In this document: in pieces, positions 14,931-50,033 of the stretch
How positions within the stretch are numbered: the first letter of the stretch is position 1
Layout of the letters: each line of letters starts with the position of its first letter
NCBI GenBank assembly: GCA_964577515.1
Contig: CAZNZN010000004.1
Span: forward strand, 1 to 50,081
Length of the DNA stretch: 50,081 bases
Source of the DNA: an uncultured Candidatus Saccharibacteria bacterium
Lineage (GTDB): Bacteria > Patescibacteriota > Minisyncoccia > Phycocordibacterales > UBA9973
Direction: 5' to 3'
The notes under the pieces: generated by a model
What the model was told of the DNA's origin: nothing
What the model saw: the letters and a program-made list of their open reading frames with translations, nothing else
Databases searched by the model: none
Translations under genes and position numbers: made by a program

Positions 14931-16297
14931 CACTCTACAACACAAAGTCTCGCTCAAACGAAGTATTCACTCCACTTTCTGACAATGAAGTGACTATGTA
15001 CGCATGCGGGCCCACTGTCTATGACTACACACATATAGGGCATATGCGTAAATATGTTGGGGATGACATCCTCCGAAGGACACTTACCTATCTTGGATAC
15101 AATGTAAAACACGTCATGAATATCACTGACGTGGGACATCTGAGCGATGATGCAGACACTGGTGAAGACAAACTCGAAAAAGGTGCGCTTCGTGAAGGAA
15201 AATCTGTATGGGAAGTAGCGCAGTATTACACTGAGTACTTCGAAGCGACAATGCGCGCGATCCACGTACTCCCTCCTGCTGTTACCTCTAAAGCAACTGA
15301 CCATATACAACAAATGATCACGCTCAATGAGCAGCTTGTCGAAAAAGGCTTTGCGTACGAAACAGCGCAGGCATTGTATTTCGATGTAACAAAAGATCCA
15401 CACTATGGAGAACTCTCAGGACAAAAGCTTTCTGAAAAAACTACTGGAGCTCGTGATGAAGTTGTGGAAGATCCCGAAAAACGACACCCTGCTGATTTTT
15501 CTCTCTGGTTTAAACGTGTTGGAAAGTTCAAAGATCACACGATGCACTGGCCTTCTCCATGGGGAGACGGATTCCCTGGGTGGCACATCGAATGTAGTGC
15601 AATGAGTATGCACTATCTTGGAGACACTATCGATATACACACCGGTGGTATCGACCATATCCCTGTGCACCACGAAAATGAGATCGCACAAAGCGAATGC
15701 GCCACCGGACATCAGTTTGTACGGTACTGGGTACATCATGCATTTCTCAACGTTGATGGTGAGAAAATGAGTAAGAGTAAGGGAAACTTTTATACTATCG
15801 AAGATATACAAGCAAAAGGAATTGACCCTCTCGCAACACGGTTACTCTTTATGCAGACAAGCTACCGAAAGCCATTGAACTTCACTTGGGAAAGCCTTGC
15901 TGCAGCAAACAAACTTCTTAAAAAAATCCAACGCTTTGTAGCTACACAAAAGAAAAGTGGTGTTGTATCAAAAGAATATGTTGCACAATTTACTGAAGGA
16001 CTATGTGACGACCTCAATACCGCAAAAGCACTTTCTGTTGTATGGTCCCTCCTGAACGATTCGCACATAGAAGATATAGATAAAGCTGCAACACTGCTGT
16101 CTTTTGATCAAGTACTCGGTTTCGGGCTTGCAGAAGTGACACCCCTTGAGATCAGTGAAGAAGCAAAAATACTCGTTGTACAACGCGATGCTGCCCGTCA
16201 GGCGAAAGACTGGGTAAAATCGGATACGCTTCGAGATGAACTTATCGCCTTGGGATACGAAGTACTCGACACCCCTGAAGGAACAGTGCTCAACTAA
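14921..16297 (+). CDS. cysS: Cysteinyl-tRNA synthetase
   Basis: YACGPTVYDYTHIGHMR (HIGH), WHIECS and KMSKSKGN. The start overlaps the corA stop by 10 nt. Confidence 0.95.
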   Translation: MALTLYNTKSRSNEVFTPLSDNEVTMYACGPTVYDYTHIGHMRKYVGDDILRRTLTYLGYNVKHVMNITDVGHLSDDADTGEDKLEKGALREGKSVWEVAQYYTEYFEATMRAIHVLPPAVTSKATDHIQQMITLNEQLVEKGFAYETAQALYFDVTKDPHYGELSGQKLSEKTTGARDEVVEDPEKRHPADFSLWFKRVGKFKDHTMHWPSPWGDGFPGWHIECSAMSMHYLGDTIDIHTGGIDHIPVHHENEIAQSECATGHQFVRYWVHHAFLNVDGEKMSKSKGNFYTIEDIQAKGIDPLATRLLFMQTSYRKPLNFTWESLAAANKLLKKIQRFVATQKKSGVVSKEYVAQFTEGLCDDLNTAKALSVVWSLLNDSHIEDIDKAATLLSFDQVLGFGLAEVTPLEISEEAKILVVQRDAARQAKDWVKSDTLRDELIALGYEVLDTPEGTVLN

Positions 16298-17949: not shown

Positions 17950-19005
17950 CTATATAAACTCGGGATCTCTTTTTGACGAGATCGCAGAAGGTTTTTCGCT
18001 GTATCCAATACGTAGAATCATGGCAATAGTATCATTATTTTTTATAAACTCTTTATGAAGATATTCACCTCCCTCTTTAATATAAAGAGATTCTTCTTTT
18101 GTTAAGAGGCTATCAACATCATGACCTTCTATCATTCGTTGATAAATATATAGTACTCCAGCAAGCGGGTGTACAGCAACACCAAAGTGACTAGCAAGCA
18201 ACCAAAAGCGTTCTACTACTCTTCCTATGGCAATAAACGAAGCAGGATTTGCTGTCGTTACAGAAAAAATAACAGGAGTAGATGACTGATACATGCGTGC
18301 GTTTGATTCAGCAACTTTTTTTGAAAAACCAATCTTTGAAAGTATTTTTGTGACAGGCCAATATCTCAATATCCGAAAAAAAGCTTGCACGGGGAGAGGG
18401 AGCTCCATTGTTTTAAGATATAATCCTCGCATTTTTTTTCGCTCTTCCTTTTCAGACCACACAATACTATCGAAAAAAAACTTATGGATAAACTTGTTCT
18501 GGAGAGCGATACGCTCCATTTGTGTTGTTATATTAAAAAGCTTTTCTTTACTTTCTTCAGTCTCAACAAAAAGAATTTGTCCTTCTGGGTTCAATATTTT
18601 CTTTAAAGCATTCCGTGTTTCAGAAGAAAGTAGTTCTTTTTTATACTCTTTTCTGTTTGTACAGCGAGAAGGCAGCGCTTCATAAAGGACTTTGTAGTCA
18701 ATATCGCTATCTTGCCCCCCTTCTGAAAAATTTATTATTGCGGTGCAGTTTTCCTCAGCACTCGGTAATACAGAAATATCTGCTTTGTATCCATAATGCG
18801 AAGCTACGATGGTGATATTTTCAATAAGAGCGCCATGTGCGAGAAGTGTCCCCCTTTCGCGAAAATCAAGAAAATCATTATTCCCTTCATTTCTTTTATA
18901 GATACAAAGTTTCGAACCCTTTACTGAAAAAACCCATGGCTGACAGTTATCCCCGGAAGGAGCGTTCACACTTTCTGATACTATTTTTTTAATAATACTT
19001 TCCAT
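17950..19005 (-). CDS. Double-length nitroreductase-superfamily protein (Acg / SagB-McbC-like fold suspected)
   Basis: N-terminal NAPSGDNCQPWVF (nitroreductase-type motif) and RCTNRKEY. At 351 aa it is about two nitroreductase halves. It lies 3 nt from both neighbours. Confidence 0.65.
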   Translation of the reverse strand: MESIIKKIVSESVNAPSGDNCQPWVFSVKGSKLCIYKRNEGNNDFLDFRERGTLLAHGALIENITIVASHYGYKADISVLPSAEENCTAIINFSEGGQDSDIDYKVLYEALPSRCTNRKEYKKELLSSETRNALKKILNPEGQILFVETEESKEKLFNITTQMERIALQNKFIHKFFFDSIVWSEKEERKKMRGLYLKTMELPLPVQAFFRILRYWPVTKILSKIGFSKKVAESNARMYQSSTPVIFSVTTANPASFIAIGRVVERFWLLASHFGVAVHPLAGVLYIYQRMIEGHDVDSLLTKEESLYIKEGGEYLHKEFIKNNDTIAMILRIGYSEKPSAISSKRDPEFI

Positions 19006-19008
19006 ATA

Positions 19009-20442
19009 CTAATTCTTTTTTACCCAACTCTGTTTATTTTTTTTCAATCTAAAAATTTCATTTCCATATGACAAAAGTTCAACTTTTGGATATGCTCTAT
19101 CTCCAATAGCGTTGTAGAGCTTACGGTATTCTGTATTAAGACTAATAAGACTTTGAAAAAGTGCTTTTGTTATAGCTTCCTTAAGTGCTTCATTCTCTGT
19201 TTGTAATTCTTCTAATTCAAGCATAACAACAAGTGTCTGCTCTGTCTGACTGTCATCTGAATCAACTCTAGCTAAAAATTTACCGGTCAATTTCCCTAAG
19301 AAATCATCTCTCTCAACAGCTGCTTTTATATTTTCAGGATATATATTAAGTGCGTAAAAAGTAACAGCAACATCTGACCTCCCAAAAAGACCGACAAACG
19401 GTAGCTGCCATTTAGCAAGATGTGGGGATAGCATCTCATACACACCTGCTTCTTTAGCAGCTTTAACAACATCACTATTCGTAAAAACAACACCTTTATC
19501 TTTTATATTGTAACGAATAAGCGGAATACCTGTATTTGCTGTAAAAGCAAGATGCCCCTCTACCGCTTCGAAATAGATAGTTTCTGGATCAAACTGAACC
19601 AAACTGGGTATAAAACCCTCTTCTCCAAATAACACCTTTCGAAAAGGCTCATTGTTTTCTGCTATTTTTCGTATTGAAATACTCAAAGGTGTTTCGTGGC
19701 CTAATGCCCCCGCATCTGCAGTTCCATACACACTAACAGTATCAAATAAACTATTAGAAACACCTGCGAGTGAGCATATCAAATCTCTCCAACGTTCAGA
19801 AAAACTCTCACCTGCAAATAAAAACTTTAAACTAAACTTATTGAGTGGAATATCTCTTTTTTTTGTTTCATTAATGACATCCATAAGAAACGGTGGGTAC
19901 CCCGCCAAAATAACCACGTCAAACTGAGGAGCGAAATCTCTCAGGACTGAAAGAATGTCTTCTTTTTCGATTCCTGGAGTTATAACAGAAAGATGCATAT
20001 CTTTTTGTCGAGAAACATAACGACAAGAGGCAGCGGTAAAAGTCCCAGCAATCCAGTTACCCATAGAAAAACAAACAACGACTAGTGTAGACTTTCCTTC
20101 GATTGAAAATATATCTCTAAATATTCTTTCATGGAGTACCCCCCCAGCTCTTTCCTGATCATCACCTCGAGGCCAATAAAAAGGCTTTCCTGACGAACCA
20201 GAACTTGCAGACACCATTGGTGGTATCTCTCTATTTTTTACAAGTTCTACAAAAGGAAAACGACGCAAGTAATTATCTTTGTCCATTAAGGGTACGGATA
20301 AGGTAAAATCACTTAACGATCGAATATTTTTAAGGTTAACATTGTTTTCTTTTAAAAATTTTTTATAGGCTTCGATTTCTTGAGAAGCTGACAAAAAAAC
20401 TGAAAGTGGAAATTGTCTTTTTTTTCTCAAAAAATGAATCAT
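19009..20442 (-). CDS. PaaK / coenzyme F390 synthetase-like adenylate-forming enzyme (ANL superfamily)
   Basis: SSGSSGKPFYWPR (phosphate-binding loop, compare TSGTTGKP), YGTADAG and RYNIKDKG motifs. 477 aa. Confidence 0.7.
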   Translation of the reverse strand: MIHFLRKKRQFPLSVFLSASQEIEAYKKFLKENNVNLKNIRSLSDFTLSVPLMDKDNYLRRFPFVELVKNREIPPMVSASSGSSGKPFYWPRGDDQERAGGVLHERIFRDIFSIEGKSTLVVVCFSMGNWIAGTFTAASCRYVSRQKDMHLSVITPGIEKEDILSVLRDFAPQFDVVILAGYPPFLMDVINETKKRDIPLNKFSLKFLFAGESFSERWRDLICSLAGVSNSLFDTVSVYGTADAGALGHETPLSISIRKIAENNEPFRKVLFGEEGFIPSLVQFDPETIYFEAVEGHLAFTANTGIPLIRYNIKDKGVVFTNSDVVKAAKEAGVYEMLSPHLAKWQLPFVGLFGRSDVAVTFYALNIYPENIKAAVERDDFLGKLTGKFLARVDSDDSQTEQTLVVMLELEELQTENEALKEAITKALFQSLISLNTEYRKLYNAIGDRAYPKVELLSYGNEIFRLKKNKQSWVKKN

Positions 20443-20453
20443 TTGTTTTAAGG

Positions 20454-21578
20454 TTACCGCTCGTTAAACTGAGCAATAAATTTTTTAGTTTTTTCTTCTC
20501 TTCCAAGAATAGATTGTTCCGACATATATTGTGGAACTATTTTTTCTTCAAGACTAACGACATAACGTCCTGAAGGAATATCTTGTTTTGTGAGAATTCT
20601 TCTAAGCGCATAAGAAACAGCCGCGCCTGCAATATTAGCAGTAGTTCCTAATTGTGGAACAGAAGGAATTTTTTTACCTATAAGAGAAAGAGATTCTTGC
20701 ATTCTTTCAGTTAAATAGCTAGGTCCGACAATTTTTGTTGCGAGTTGAAGCCACATTTTATAATCAAGATTTTCAAAATCTTTTGGTTCAACATCCCCAA
20801 GTAATCCATGGAAAATTGGCTGTGTAGAATCAAGATCATATCGTTCAACATCAAGTAGTACTCCATCTCCATTGTCAGTAGCCATTAACACTGGGATTTT
20901 TGCTTCACGGCAAATAAAACGTGCTGCGATCTTTAAATCAAGGCTATCCATCTCATCAACAAACACATCTACTCTTGGGTTTAAAAGAAAATCAGCAAGT
21001 GTTTCTTTTGTGATCCCCTTATCCCATAATGAAAGCTCTGTGTAAGGATCAAGCTCCCAAACCTCATGAGCAGCTATATGTGTTTTATTTTGACCAATAT
21101 GAATGAGCTTTGCTCTCATACGGTTAAGATTGGTAATCTCTGCTGTATCAAAATCTGCAATCTTAATATTTTTTGATCCTCCACTAACGACAACAGATGA
21201 GAGTATTGCTGAACCAACAGAGAGCCCCGCGATTGCAATATGCGAATTTCGATAGGTTGTTTGCTCTTCTTCTGTAAGAATAAATCTATTACGAGCAGTA
21301 CGGAGCATAAAGTATATATCTTCAGATACAGTTTTTATTAATACGGCACTCCAAGGAAAATATATAAAAACAGGTTCTAGTGTATTGTTTTTTATAAAAT
21401 CAGACAGCATATCAGGGACACCTGGTTGTGCTTTTTTATATTGAGGATTTTTTACAAAAAAAAGCTCTTCCAGTGCTCCAGAAAAAGCATCGACTTCGGA
21501 AGCAATTATGTTATTTTTTTTAAAAGAATCTAGCTCTTTTAATGAAAGAAAGATAGGTTTTTTTAGATTTTGCTCCAT
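20454..21578 (-). CDS. E1/ThiF-like protein with a ~115-aa N-terminal extension and a degenerate nucleotide loop
   Basis: IAIAGLSVGSAILSS replaces GxGxxG. IADFDTAEITNLNRM matches the DxD..SNLNRQ region, and VDEMDSLDLKIAARFICREAKIPVLMATDNG is present. Confidence 0.7.
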   Translation of the reverse strand: MEQNLKKPIFLSLKELDSFKKNNIIASEVDAFSGALEELFFVKNPQYKKAQPGVPDMLSDFIKNNTLEPVFIYFPWSAVLIKTVSEDIYFMLRTARNRFILTEEEQTTYRNSHIAIAGLSVGSAILSSVVVSGGSKNIKIADFDTAEITNLNRMRAKLIHIGQNKTHIAAHEVWELDPYTELSLWDKGITKETLADFLLNPRVDVFVDEMDSLDLKIAARFICREAKIPVLMATDNGDGVLLDVERYDLDSTQPIFHGLLGDVEPKDFENLDYKMWLQLATKIVGPSYLTERMQESLSLIGKKIPSVPQLGTTANIAGAAVSYALRRILTKQDIPSGRYVVSLEEKIVPQYMSEQSILGREEKTKKFIAQFNER

Positions 21579-21595
21579 AGTTATAGCCTCACTGA

Positions 21596-21604
21596 TTATA
21601 TCAT
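21596..21604 (-). promoter_or_regulatory. Candidate extended -10 promoter (TGaTATAAT) for the E1-like operon
   Basis: Minus-strand TGATATAAT lies in the 38-nt ddl/E1-like gap, 17 nt upstream of the ATG. Confidence 0.4.
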
Positions 21605-21616
21605 AACAAAAGTTTA

Positions 21617-22567
21617 TTATTTATTTGAAAGAATCGCACGAACAAACTCAACAAGTGACGACCCTACGGCTTCGAGTGCTTGATAAAATGGTGCGTGGGG
21701 ATGGAGTGCTGGGTGTGTATCGGTCTCCAAAAACCATATTTTCCCAAATCGATCAACCACAAACTCTGATTGCGAATAATCTTTTGCTCCAATAGATTCG
21801 TGTAGCTGTTGTGCAAGAGCACTTACCGCCTCCCTTTCCCCCGGGCGAAGCCGTGAAGGAAACATTGTGTGCGGCTCTTGCCGTTGTTCATGAGAAAGTA
21901 CACCACGAGAAGGAGAGGTGACATCAACAACCGGTAGTACGTAACGCTCTTTATTTCTAAAGTTATCAATGACCCCGACTGCCACTTCTGTTCCAGCAAT
22001 GTATTGCTCGACAATAAATGGAGTCTCATGCGAAAGAGCCTCCTCCACGATCTGTGCAAGTTCAAGTGGTGTAAATGCAAAAAACGTATGCACTGATGAA
22101 CCACCAGACAGTGGTTTTATTACCCACGGTGGTGCCATGGTCTTATAAATACGAGCACTCACTTCAGCTATAGAATCATCATTTTCTGGAATAATGAGTA
22201 GTGATTGTGGTGTTCTGATCCCAAGGGCCTTCGCATGTTCTTTTGCGGTTTGCTTATTAAAAGCAACAGCGGAGGCAAGTGTTCCTGATCCAGTATATGG
22301 AATACCGTACTGATCGAGTAGGCGCTGTAGTGCCCCGTCTTCACCAAAGCTTCCATGAAGTGAATTCCATACGTGATCAACATGCGACCCTACTTGGTCT
22401 ACAGAAACAGGGATACCTTTTATATGGAGCACACCTTCTTTATCAAGAAGCATATCGATAGCTTCAAATCCTGCCTCAGCAAGTGCCTGTTGCACTGCTG
22501 CCCCTGTTTTAAGCGAGATATGATACTCGGGGCTTATGCCTCCACGAAGAATACCGATTCTTTTCAT
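21617..22567 (-). CDS. ddl: D-alanine--D-alanine ligase
   Basis: MKRIGILRGGISPEYHISL, HGSFGEDGALQRLLDQYGIPYTGSG and an ATP-grasp core. The 36-codon ORF-track extension runs through a terminator and a repeat, so it was dropped. Confidence 0.9.
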   Translation of the reverse strand: MKRIGILRGGISPEYHISLKTGAAVQQALAEAGFEAIDMLLDKEGVLHIKGIPVSVDQVGSHVDHVWNSLHGSFGEDGALQRLLDQYGIPYTGSGTLASAVAFNKQTAKEHAKALGIRTPQSLLIIPENDDSIAEVSARIYKTMAPPWVIKPLSGGSSVHTFFAFTPLELAQIVEEALSHETPFIVEQYIAGTEVAVGVIDNFRNKERYVLPVVDVTSPSRGVLSHEQRQEPHTMFPSRLRPGEREAVSALAQQLHESIGAKDYSQSEFVVDRFGKIWFLETDTHPALHPHAPFYQALEAVGSSLVEFVRAILSNK

Positions 22568-22643: not shown

Positions 22644-22819
22644 ATGTGCGCCGGGAAGGATTTGTTTCTCGGCATGTTTGCCTCAAAACCTTCACCTGCT
22701 TATCGCAGGTTACGGCCCACGGTTCAAATCCTTCTTTTTACAATACACAGTACCACTATAAAACACCGCAGTAATACCTACGGTGTTTTATATATTTTAT
22801 GTGCGCCGGGAAGGATTTG
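22640..22819. repeat. 25-nt direct repeat (22640-22664 and 22795-22819) duplicating the 3' end of tRNA-Tyr plus 7 nt of trailer
   Basis: Exact repeat TTTTATGTGCGCCGGGAAGGATTTG. An inverted 14-mer GGTTCAAATCCTTC at 22721-22734 is complementary to the tRNA T-arm at 22810-22823. Confidence 0.9.
22758..22790 (-). terminator. Hairpin terminator downstream of tRNA-Tyr
   Basis: Minus strand: ACACCG, a 12-nt loop, CGGTGT followed by TTTTAT. Confidence 0.55.
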
Positions 22820-22885
22820 AACCTTCGTAGCCCAAAGGGCGACAGATTTACAGTCTGTTGTAATTGACCACTCTACCACCGACGC
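22802..22885 (-). tRNA. tRNA-Tyr (anticodon GUA), class II with a long variable arm, no encoded CCA
   Basis: Manual fold: acceptor GCGTCGG/CCGGCGC, anticodon stem ACAGA/TCTGT with loop CTGTAAA, variable stem GCCC/GGGC, T-arm GAAGG-TTCAAAT-CCTTC, discriminator A. Confidence 0.9.
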
Positions 22886-29288: not shown

Positions 29289-29360
29289 GGTCCGGTGGCC
29301 AAGTGGTAAGGCAGAGATCTGCAAAATCTCTATACGCGAGTTCGATTCTCGCCCGGACCT
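29289..29360 (+). tRNA. tRNA-Cys (anticodon GCA), no encoded CCA
   Basis: Manual fold: acceptor GGTCCGG/CCGGACC, anticodon stem GAGAT/ATCTC with loop CTGCAAA, T-arm GCGAG-TTCGATT-CTCGC, discriminator T. Confidence 0.9.
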
Positions 29361-29503
29361 CAGTGCGTAGCACTGACCTCTTTCCTAAGAGAATCGAACT
29401 TGGGAAGGGGTCGGGAAACCGGAGTTTCCCGCGGGAGGAAGGCCTGGGAAAACCGTGGGTTTCCCAAGAGTGAGATAGTGTAACGTCTCGCCCGGACCTC
29501 AGT
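29347..29503 (+). repeat. 18-nt direct repeat (29347-29364 and 29486-29503) duplicating the tRNA-Cys 3' end, flanking a 121-nt GC-rich structured insert
   Basis: Exact repeat TCTCGCCCGGACCTCAGT. An inverted 12-mer GAGAATCGAACT (29389-29400) is complementary to the T-arm at 29339-29350. Hairpins are CAGTGC-gta-GCACTG and GGGAAAC-cgga-GTTTCCC, and GGGAAA/TTTCCC is enclosed by CTTGGGA/TCCCAAG. Confidence 0.9.
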
Positions 29504-29519
29504 ACTATCAAATATATTT

Positions 29520-29602
29520 GCCCGAGTGATGGAATGGTAGACATAGGGGACTTAAAATCCCCAGGCCGCAAGGCCGTGTGGGTTCGAGTCCCACCTCGGG
29601 CA
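29520..29602 (+). tRNA. tRNA-Leu (anticodon UAA), class II
   Basis: Acceptor GCCCGAG/CTCGGGC, anticodon stem GGGGA/TCCCC with loop CTTAAAA, variable stem GGCC-gcaa-GGCC, T-arm GTGGG-TTCGAGT-CCCAC, discriminator A. Confidence 0.9.
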
Positions 29603-29653
29603 CAAAAAGAAAAACCTGCAGCATTGCAAGTTTTTTACAAATATTTTTTCACC

Positions 29654-29884
29654 TTATTCCCAAACAACTTTCTCGTCCCAAAAGTATATATGCCTCCCTT
29701 TTATATACAGGAAGTCAGCAATGTCCCTCGCTTTGCCAGCAAGGCAAGAGAGTGCGTTTCGCAGCAATCCTCTCTTTGTAGGAGCTTCAGCGTCAATTTG
29801 ATAAAAAGGTGCTTTTTCACCATCACGTCCAATAGTAAAGAAAGAGTATGTTCTTTTTTCCATAACAGATTGATTTGAAACCAT
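29654..29884 (-). CDS. Hypothetical small protein (start uncertain: 29884 or 29863)
   Basis: It is the only sizeable ORF in the 29603-29925 gap. It lies downstream of the tRNA terminator, with TGtGATACT just upstream. No recognisable motif. Confidence 0.3.
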   Translation of the reverse strand: MVSNQSVMEKRTYSFFTIGRDGEKAPFYQIDAEAPTKRGLLRNALSCLAGKARDIADFLYIKGRHIYFWDEKVVWE

Positions 29885-29924
29885 AGTATCACAGTAAAAC
29901 GCTACACAAAAGAGTACCCTCACC

Positions 29925-29962
29925 AAAACAAAAGACACCGATCACTTCGGTGTCTTTTGTTT
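29925..29962. terminator. Intrinsic terminator after the minus-strand tRNA pair
   Basis: AAAGACACCGA-tcact-TCGGTGTCTTT. On the minus strand it is followed by TGTTTTGG. Confidence 0.8.
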
Positions 29963-30038
29963 TGGTGCCCCCAGTAGGATTTGAACCTACGACCGTCTCC
30001 TTAAGAGGGAGCTGCTCTACCAACTGAGCTATAGGGGC
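29963..30038 (-). tRNA. tRNA-Lys (anticodon CUU), CCA encoded
   Basis: Reverse complement: GCCCCTA..GCTC AGTTGGTA GAGC..loop CTCTTAA..GTAGG-TTCAAAT-CCTAC-TGGGGGC-A-CCA. Confidence 0.9.
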
Positions 30039-30057
30039 AGTATATTCGGCAGCTGTG

Positions 30058-30139
30058 TGCCGGGGAGAGGACTTGAACCTCCATGGATCGCTCCGCTTGC
30101 TCCTAAGGCAAGTGCGTCTACCAATTTCGCCACCCCGGC
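30058..30139 (-). tRNA. tRNA-Leu (anticodon UAG), class II
   Basis: Reverse complement: acceptor GCCGGGG/CCCCGGC, anticodon stem CTTGC/GCAAG with loop CTTAGGA, a long variable arm, T-loop TTCAAGT, discriminator A. Confidence 0.88.
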
Positions 30140-49958: not shown

Positions 49959-50033
49959 TCCCTGGTAGCTCAGCGGTAGAGCAGTCGCCTGTTAAGCGAT
50001 TGGTCGTAGGTTCGAATCCTACCCGGGGAGCCA
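49959..50033 (+). tRNA. tRNA-Asn (anticodon GUU), CCA encoded
   Basis: Acceptor TCCCTGG/CCGGGGA, anticodon stem GTCGC/GCGAT with loop CTGTTAA, T-arm GTAGG-TTCGAAT-CCTAC, discriminator G, then CCA. Confidence 0.9.

Follow-up and report, generated by a model that had tools for sequence, protein, structure and literature searches.

In a 50,081-nucleotide (nt) stretch of DNA from an uncultured Candidatus Saccharibacteria bacterium (contig CAZNZN010000004.1, assembly GCA_964577515.1; the window in the following) we analyzed a cassette of four genes, which encode a ThiF/E1-like protein, a PaaK-fold ligase, a flavin-dependent oxidase (FDO) and a seven-transmembrane (7TM) sensor histidine kinase. We tentatively interpret it, with slightly less than even confidence, as a Patescibacteria-wide four-gene operon for a variant of the N-acyl-oxazolone pathway (OxzAB, TyzACB, TrzAS), the product of which is possibly sensed by the kinase. 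The enzymatic part of this model, in which ligase, ThiF and FDO generate an oxazolone-type product, is rather probable from the sequence comparisons; the signalling part, suggested by the conserved linkage of the kinase, is considerably more doubtful.

The original prediction, made from the letters of the window, had described three tightly packed genes at 17950-21604, and these are indeed located on the minus strand with gaps of 11 nt between ThiF and ligase (20443-20453) and 3 nt between ligase and FDO (19006-19008). It had left out the co-operonic kinase, the fourth gene of the conserved unit, which follows the FDO gene on the same strand with a spacing of 3 nt. The complete module has a size of about 5.3 kb and is flanked by ddl and cysS, with no extra open reading frame (ORF) in between. 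The four genes are:

20454-21578, minus strand: ThiF/E1-like gene, 374 amino acids (aa)
19009-20442, minus strand: PaaK-fold adenylate-forming (ANL) ligase gene, 477 aa
17950-19005, minus strand: FDO gene of the nitroreductase superfamily, 351 aa
16294-17946, minus strand: HisKA_7TM sensor histidine kinase gene, 550 aa

The motifs quoted in the original prediction (SSGSSGKPFYW, YGTADAG, RYNIKDKG and NAPSGDNCQPWVF) are all present in the translations, and its domain calls (E1/ThiF, PaaK-like ligase, nitroreductase-like protein) were upheld by Pfam and NCBIfam searches and by AlphaFold models compared with Foldseek.

Homology of the ThiF-like protein and the FDO to oxazolone synthetases

An oxazolone synthetase, OxzB, is known from Pseudoalteromonas rubra (bioRxiv 10.1101/2020.06.11.147165). 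In M. tuberculosis, TyzB (ThiF) and TyzC (FDO) cyclise and desaturate N-acyl tyrosine (PMC10404671), and Rv1355c is TrzS, the enzyme that turns N-acyl tryptophan into N-acyl tryptazolone by ATP-dependent cyclisation followed by O2-dependent desaturation (PMC12856293). All three pathways rely on a neighbouring acyl-CoA-dependent N-acyltransferase (OxzA, TyzA or TrzA) for their N-acyl amino acid (PMC12856293, PMC10404671, bioRxiv 10.1101/2020.06.11.147165).

The ThiF-like protein matches Pfam ThiF with 67.8 bits and the NCBIfam model PRK07877 ("Rv1355c family") with 272 bits (E 9e-81, positions 39-340 of 722). The next-best family reaches 66 bits (E 2e-18), a value which none of the other ThiF, MoeB, TcdA and E1 models exceeds, and the protein stays far under every cut-off of the NCBIfam models for MoeB, ThiF and UbaA. 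In an alignment with L092, a Rhodococcus protein annotated as "Rv1355c family protein", residues 71-347 match its residues 62-334 at 35 % identity, and the N- and C-terminal extensions specific for Rv1355c are present. Comparison of the window protein with 12 other cassette-type ThiF sequences or domains and the fused Rhodococcus protein showed that the nucleotide-binding motif GLSVGS, the arginine-finger motif NLNR, the acidic motif DEMDS..K and the signature DVER(Y/F)D are kept. The nearest solved sequence relative is TcdA (E 4e-8), the tRNA ct6A dehydratase and likewise an ATP-dependent cyclodehydratase of the ThiF family; the window protein differs from it in carrying the Rv1355c-specific extensions and scores only 48 bits against the TcdA model, which has a cut-off of 304. 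We infer that it is an ATP-dependent cyclodehydratase ("cyclase") of the Rv1355c/TrzS clade.

The FDO was matched by the fused NCBIfam model PRK14851 (182 bits), by positions 375-712 of PRK07877 (164 bits) and by the Acg-family FMN oxidoreductase model (122 bits). Its residues 12-345 correspond to 377-704 in the fused Rhodococcus protein, with 21 % identity. Its AlphaFold model (pLDDT 90) has by far its best PDB match in the Acg homologue 2YMV (E 5e-12, TM 0.66-0.70), which is also the closest structure given for the FDO domain of TrzS (PMC12856293). The protein is thus classified as a putative Acg/TyzC-like oxidase and predicted desaturase.

The ThiF and FDO genes of the window consequently correspond, in collinear order, to the two halves of the fused Rv1355c/TrzS protein. 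That the halves of an Rv1355c-type protein are split here had been recognized before; the accompanying statement that the function of Rv1355c is unknown is superseded by its identification as TrzS (PMC12856293). The equivalog cut-off of the "Rv1355c family protein" model, set at 476 bits for one fused protein, is not reached by the split halves (272 and 164 bits), so that by sequence both are homologous to the family below equivalog level.

The cassette resembles TrzAS (Rv1356c-Rv1355c; mycobacteria, Rhodococcus) in that its cyclase and FDO fall into one NCBIfam family with TrzS and align collinearly with the TrzS-type fusion, the nucleotide-binding and acidic motifs are kept, and Acg is the nearest solved structure for both oxidases. 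It differs from TrzAS in encoding cyclase and FDO as separate genes, in having a PaaK-fold ligase between these and a 7TM histidine kinase after them, in the absence of the N-acyltransferase TrzA, and in its host, Patescibacteria instead of actinobacteria; in M. tuberculosis the neighbours are cyclic di-GMP genes. TyzACB (Rv2336-2338c) shares with the cassette the split ThiF and FDO genes in one operon. An acyltransferase like TrzA, TyzA or the GNAT family was not found in the window or in loci L001-L094 by phmmer, with the hypothetical protein beside the Rhodococcus trzS homologue (taken as TrzA-like) and a GNAT protein adjacent to a Streptomyces ThiF gene as queries.

The ligase is a PaaK-fold adenylating enzyme outside the PaaK orthologues

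The ligase has no Pfam match, and FlxY is matched only weakly (E 5e-4). The AlphaFold model (pLDDT 84) was matched by Foldseek to BT_0428, PaaK1/2, 2-hydroxyisobutyryl-CoA ligase (HCL) and ClxA with E-values of 1e-15 to 1e-19. The P-loop SSGSSGKP, the ribose-binding D315, the hinge residues R355/D357 and the C-terminal catalytic K470 are invariant in 16 homologues. By sequence and model, the ligase is thus predicted to be an intact adenylate-forming enzyme with PaaK fold. It is not an orthologue of PaaK, because it scores 51 bits, a weak match, against the PaaK equivalog TIGR02155 with a cut-off of 646, and paa genes are present neither in the window nor in the related loci. A function in phenylacetate catabolism was therefore rejected: what is shared with PaaK is the fold and the adenylation motifs.

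Among the structural neighbours are PaaK-fold enzymes that act on aromatic acids outside paa operons, for instance ClxA (PDB 9S45) of the closoxazole pathway, which binds an aromatic acid and its adenylate and is similar to the window ligase in fold and adenylation motifs. ClxA-type enzymes reportedly make ester or amide bonds directly, according to the closoxazole and nataxazole literature. The window ligase differs in being just 16-18 % identical to ClxA and FlxY, and the window cassette is devoid of benzoxazole or polyene genes.

A word-index search returned more than 3000 matches to the ligase, and the named ones in the best 120 were all from Patescibacteria; the exhaustive profile search yielded 858 clusters (50 % identity) at E<=1e-30. 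Homologues with 38-40 % identity are encoded in cyanobacteria (L057-L065, L067-L069, L071-L086; for example L060:9815-11419, Nostoc linckia NIES-25), where no ThiF, FDO or 7TM kinase is found within 10 kb. The neighbours of the Nostoc ligases (Ser/Thr kinases, an RTX protein, a hexapeptide transferase, DUF3352) were uninformative.

The cassette is conserved across the Patescibacteria

To determine the conservation of the neighbourhood, 80 loci were fetched with the ligase profile and their six-frame ORFs were searched with the window proteins, giving 54 non-redundant Patescibacteria loci. ThiF adjoins the ligase in 50 of these and the HisKA_7TM kinase is present in 45; when only the 32 loci with at least 4.5 kb on both sides are considered, each of the two is found in 29. 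The FDO, searched with a second, divergent query, is present in nearly all loci holding enough sequence. The arrangement recurs, with these genes side by side, in about 55 independent loci, far more than chance would allow, and represents a real conserved functional unit in the candidate phyla radiation (CPR). The loci carry the labels Nomura-, Paceibacteria, Doudna-, Yanofsky-, Jorgensen-, Magasanik-, Lloyd-, Andersen-, Woese-, Berkel-, Niyogi- and Nealsonbacteria as well as Saccharimonadales. Three loci (L020, L024, L031) come from metagenome-assembled genome records titled "uncultured Gammaproteobacteria" or "Candidatus Binatia"; they contain typical Patescibacteria cassettes and neighbours, and their contigs are probably mis-binned or mislabelled.

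Three gene orders were found: ThiF-ligase-FDO-kinase as in the window, FDO-ThiF-ligase-kinase, and ligase-ThiF-(FDO on the opposite strand)-kinase. Reverse searches with distant FDO homologues agree with this linkage of FDO and kinase: L096 has the order ThiF-dehydrogenase-ligase-FDO-kinase and L097 the order FDO-methyltransferase-kinase. Furthermore, natural fusions exist:

P0275, 880 aa: Rv1355c-type ThiF and ligase
P0329, 863 aa: ligase and ThiF
P0349, 1242 aa: ScyB-like tryptophan dehydrogenase, ligase and ThiF

The loci of P0275 and P0349 were fetched, and in both the fusion gene is located beside an FDO, an alpha/beta-hydrolase and a HisKA_7TM kinase (L098:7001-10729, L100:4095-6737). 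That ligase and ThiF act one after the other in a single pathway is strongly indicated by the fusions, and P0349 in addition ties an aromatic amino-acid dehydrogenase to this pathway.

Accessory genes point to aromatic substrates

The additional genes found inside related cassettes are:

12 loci: FlxA-like tyrosine ammonia-lyase (TAL; 639 bits)
7 loci: other lyase/mutase of the MIO (4-methylideneimidazole-5-one) type
5 loci: ScyB-like tryptophan dehydrogenase
3 loci: other ELFV dehydrogenase
5 loci: HisC-like aminotransferase
2 loci: prephenate dehydratase
1 locus: prephenate dehydrogenase
7 loci: S-adenosylmethionine (SAM) methyltransferase just before the kinase
1 locus: M19 dipeptidase
L098, L099 and L100: alpha/beta-hydrolase

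The pairing of the FlxA-like TAL with a PaaK-like ligase in 12 cassettes resembles FlxA/FlxY of the flexirubin pathway. In L095 (4575-11269) the PaaK-like gene is replaced: the order is REC-ThiF-X328-FDO-kinase-benzoate-CoA-ligase family, where REC is a response regulator receiver and the last protein scores 594 bits, above the cut-off of its model. For X328 (328 aa) the searches of Pfam, NCBIfam and PDB sequences gave no match; its place in the locus would be compatible with an N-acyltransferase. Together, the accessory genes and the benzoate-CoA-ligase-family enzyme of L095 point to an aromatic acid and an aromatic amino acid as substrates. This fits TyzACB and OxzAB, the products of which (tyrazolone, phenazolone) are derived from aromatic amino acids. 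The acyl donor would differ: the N-acyltransferases of TyzACB and OxzAB take fatty acyl-CoA, with no counterpart found in the cassettes of L001-L094, whereas the TAL, the benzoate-CoA-ligase family and the PaaK fold hint at an adenylated aromatic acid.

Locus L097 (7001-10613) is a minimal form with three genes, for the FDO, a protein of 313 aa and the kinase; ThiF and ligase genes are absent from the 7 kb around it. This 313-aa protein belongs to a methyltransferase-like family with a DLGAGG motif and no Pfam match, which is also encoded just before the kinase in L012 (8453-9385) and L016 (3948-4862).

The 7TM histidine kinase

The kinase consists of an N-terminal membrane domain (HisKA_7TM, 40 bits) followed by HisKA (68 bits) and HATPase_c (95 bits), and its sensor part is wholly membrane-embedded. 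Mean column identity of the 7TM domain is 47 % over 21 loci. In 29 of the 32 loci with full flanks a HisKA_7TM kinase of this subfamily is encoded at most 6 kb from the ligase, nearly always directly downstream of the cassette; as a partner of the cassette it is nearly as constant as ThiF. Of the loci fetched by a reverse search with an alignment of eight 7TM sequences, L087 has the order ligase-ThiF-FDO-kinase and L089 contains FDO and kinase, which again places these two together. Searching proteins by word index with the 7TM domain yielded 9 matches, mostly on short contigs. L005 (3818-4765) encodes in addition a 315-aa HisKA_7TM-only paralogue, devoid of the kinase core and located upstream of ThiF, in a cassette that has the full kinase as well. 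A 624-aa methyltransferase-domain protein beside a distant HisKA_7TM gene (L091) turned out to be unrelated to the FDO.

A REC gene adjoins the cassette in 21 of the 60 tabulated loci. Directly after the kinase, L027, L034, L036, L037 and L041 (the last cut by the contig end) encode a stand-alone receiver and then a fusion of REC with a T2SSE ATPase. In L036 (14290-16484) these are a receiver of about 150 aa and a 577-aa PilB/GspE-type protein (T2SSE 392 bits, Response_reg 71 bits); the other loci are:

L027:15926-18230, receiver and REC-T2SSE
L034:15754-17925, receiver and REC-T2SSE
L037:14235-16362, receiver and REC-T2SSE
L041:9433-10349, receiver and REC-T2SSE, cut

The receiver and the REC-T2SSE protein may form an output of the kinase. 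In the one species surveyed, a Saccharibacterium, type IV pili are essential (PMC11665869).

Proposed pathway and alternative explanations

In the model that we propose, the ligase would adenylate a carboxylic acid, likely an aromatic one, and join it to the amine of an amino acid, resulting in an N-acyl amino acid and doing the job of the missing acyl-CoA-dependent N-acyltransferase. ThiF would then adenylate the carboxylate of the amino acid and close the 5(4H)-oxazolone ring, as its homology to TrzS and TyzB suggests, and the FDO, homologous to TyzC and the FDO domain of TrzS, would use O2 to desaturate the C-alpha/C-beta bond to a conjugated oxazolone. Finally the co-transcribed 7TM kinase might sense the product or a methylated or hydrolysed derivative, making the locus a producer-plus-receptor cassette, in which the kinase would in some lineages be followed by the fusion of a receiver with a PilB/GspE-type ATPase. 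An ATP-dependent carboxylate activation combined with flavin-dependent redox chemistry had been proposed before and fits this model; the peptide, protein C-terminus or cell-wall compound named as substrate is not supported, given the lack of room for a precursor gene, the aromatic accessory genes, and an adjacency to ddl that was observed in the window and its closest syntenic relative, L007, other loci being located by dnaJ or aminoacyl-tRNA synthetase genes.

Several points weigh against the oxazolone-and-kinase model. The FDO and the actinobacterial FDO domain share only 21 % identity. Whether the ligase forms an amide or a CoA thioester is not readable from its sequence, which is far below the PaaK equivalog cut-off, and the ligase also occurs without the cassette partners, in L003 and L017 (Patescibacteria) and in about 28 Nostoc/Desmonostoc loci. 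The window cassette itself is the minimal four-gene form with no accessory gene. Neither a response regulator (REC) nor a T2SSE ATPase was found in the 50-kb window; the reverse search with an alignment of eight 7TM sequences was thin, with three metagenome loci, two of them informative; and a distant HisKA_7TM protein (26 % identical) is located in another context. The kinase linkage is equally compatible with plain operon regulation by an unrelated cue. Substrates, product and ligand binding are inferred from the observed homologies, motifs, linkage, fusions and accessory genes.

The alternative that survives best retains the oxazolone-type chemistry and takes the kinase as a mere regulator or an unrelated co-inherited sensor; the product would then serve an end other than signalling and could, for example, act as an antimicrobial, attack the host as a reactive acylating agent, be part of a membrane or pigment, or protect against oxidative stress. 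No physiological role has been firmly assigned to the known oxazolones, for which connections to stress and to antimicrobial N-acyl tyrosines have been drawn (PMC12856293). The authors of the papers on the oxazolone pathways speculate on signalling (PMC12856293, PMC10404671, bioRxiv 10.1101/2020.06.11.147165). Biosynthetic operons are often placed beside their own regulators, and the low share of loci with a REC gene, together with its absence from the window, also suits a non-signalling product. On the other hand, the kinase gene almost always comes next after the cassette in the same orientation, separated by a few nt, and it persists through three gene orders, the fusions, the replacement of the ligase and the minimal FDO-methyltransferase-kinase locus. 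The membrane-embedded sensor would moreover suit a hydrophobic ligand. Taken together, this speaks for a dedicated kinase without proving it. We regard a purely non-signalling role as possible, though on the unlikely side.

A further-reaching version of the signalling model is an ancient, self-contained CPR signalling module, in which an aromatic oxazolone-type autoinducer is read by the dedicated 7TM kinase and, in some lineages, linked to type IV pili by REC-PilB; we consider this version unlikely, somewhat more so than the non-signalling explanation. If it were true, a diffusible small molecule would act on the type IV pili of these episymbionts and thereby on their motility or attachment to the host. 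Co-transcription of genes for signal synthesis, here putative, with a polytopic membrane histidine kinase is shared with agrBDCA, comQXPA and LuxM/LuxN. In contrast to these systems, with whose synthases and receptors the cassette proteins have no homology, the signal would be a small aromatic heterocycle and not a peptide or acyl-homoserine lactone, the response regulator is not always adjacent, and the signalling role is a prediction from gene linkage.

According to a second alternative the pathway is canonical: the ligase would yield only a CoA thioester (aryl- or acyl-CoA), and its transfer to the amino acid would be left to an acyltransferase that has escaped recognition and is either encoded elsewhere or comes from the host. 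The closest structures are indeed CoA ligases (PaaK, BT_0428, HCL), and the benzoate-CoA-ligase-family protein plus X328 in L095 looks like a CoA ligase plus transferase. However, neither the window nor more than 50 cassettes yielded a candidate for such an acyltransferase, and the covalent ligase-ThiF fusions suggest that the product of the ligase is the substrate of ThiF. This explanation is improbable in our view.

The base composition had been taken as a sign of foreign origin, and the drop itself is real: the three genes (17950-21578) have a GC content of 35.8 % compared to 43.4 % elsewhere in the window (7.6 points lower), and their GC at third codon positions is 0.20-0.28 versus 0.32-0.39 in ddl, clpB and cysS (about 0.1 lower). 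With some sources annotating ligase homologues as "phenylacetate-CoA ligase", these values could indicate a recently acquired foreign island or a phenylacetate-type catabolic or detoxification module for aromatic acids. Yet the cassette is AT-richer than its own flanks in 35 of 45 related loci including L007 (mean difference -2.5 points), so low GC is a property of the cassette across genomes. In L007, a Nomurabacteria locus with 63 % identity in the ligase and 70 % in the 7TM domain of the kinase, the order clpB-ddl-cassette-cysS of the window is kept, so that low GC is no sign of a recent transfer into the window genome. The cassette is located among housekeeping genes in many lineages with no mobility genes flanking it, and the lack of paa genes and the low PaaK score speak against catabolism. 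A foreign or catabolic module is therefore very improbable.

E1-like proteins paired with nitroreductase-fold proteins occur in McbBCD and SagBCD, and the original prediction had drawn the analogy to such azole-forming systems for ribosomally synthesized and post-translationally modified peptides (RiPPs), with the ligase in the place of YcaO; apart from the weak matches of PADLOC E1-E2 models to the ThiF core there is little to recommend a RiPP-like azole or a modification of peptide or protein C-termini, and we give it hardly any credence, because ThiF and FDO fit the small-molecule Rv1355c family with E-values 30-60 orders beyond any other family, the gaps of 38, 11 and 3 nt are too short for a precursor ORF, and accessory genes elsewhere act on free amino acids. 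The fitting analogy is the conversion of a free N-acyl amino acid to an oxazolone. No YcaO or SagB-type family was found in the Pfam and NCBIfam scans, and an azole RiPP system of the McbBCD/SagBCD type was rejected. As had been noted from the sequence, neither YcaO nor sulfur-carrier, ubiquitin-like or JAB proteins are encoded nearby: the ORFs at 15-25 kb include no ubiquitin-like protein, ThiS/MoaD, E2 or JAB, and E1/ubiquitin-like conjugation and sulfur-carrier activation were rejected. Without genes for YcaO, a precursor, ubiquitin-like protein, E2 or JAB, a RiPP or protein-tagging role is not supported. Nothing points to a defence system either, PADLOC having returned just the weak E1-E2 core matches.

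Relation to published work

The predicted core chemistry of ThiF and FDO is of a known kind, judged by homology to the oxazolone synthetases. What appears to be undescribed is the ligase in place of the acyltransferase, the fixed kinase partner and the spread across the Patescibacteria. Full-text searches, which do not cover all journals, returned no report on ThiF plus nitroreductase in Patescibacteria or on an E1-like plus nitroreductase gene neighbourhood, no link of oxazolone, histidine kinase and ThiF, no quorum-sensing histidine-kinase gene cluster of Patescibacteria, and no combination of phenylacetate-CoA ligase with a two-component system in Patescibacteria. HisKA_7TM is named there only in two reviews of archaeal kinases, and the ten best-ranked publications for oxazolone combined with CPR names do not contain the word oxazolone. 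The TyzACB and TrzAS papers mention neither a ligase nor Patescibacteria (PMC10404671, PMC12856293), and in the OxzB preprint there is no mention of Patescibacteria or of a histidine kinase (bioRxiv 10.1101/2020.06.11.147165). The assessment that the arrangement is undescribed thus agrees with the searchable literature.

N-acyl oxazolones were discovered only in 2021-2025. An adenylating ligase as activator of the acyl donor would widen the enzymology of the pathway and probably also its chemical space towards aromatic 2-substituents. The fixed linkage of oxazolone enzymes and sensor kinase makes the question whether oxazolones are signals directly testable, by challenging the kinase with the product. 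The Patescibacteria are a huge, largely uncultured radiation of episymbionts, and a small conserved module that can readily be expressed offers a practical entry point to how they sense their partners. They have almost no secondary metabolism; a chemical signalling module of this type would, if confirmed, be previously undescribed.

Promoter candidate and further features of the window

The original prediction had located a promoter in the gap of 38 nt between ddl (stop at 21617-21619) and ThiF, and a perfect match to an extended -10 box is present there:

21603-21595, minus strand: extended -10 promoter-like box TGATATAAT, in the ddl-ThiF gap, read from the sequence and flagged by a pattern scan
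21590-21587, minus strand: GAGG ribosome-binding site, 8 nt ahead of the ThiF ATG

The box is a good and well-placed consensus match and a promoter candidate; it is not proof of a promoter, because promoter-like matches across the whole region do not exceed the shuffle expectation in the pattern scan. At the other end of the cassette, the kinase gene and the convergent cysS gene share 4 nt at their 3' ends (16294-16297), and no terminator-like site was found in this junction.

Apart from tRNAs, no family reached the gathering score in the Rfam scan of the window. A tRNA-Tyr gene (22801-22885) is located between clpB and ddl, a cluster at 29289-30139 comprises tRNA-Cys, tRNA-Leu(taa), tRNA-Lys(ctt) and tRNA-Leu(tag), and a tRNA-Asn gene is found at 49959-50033, close to the end of the window.

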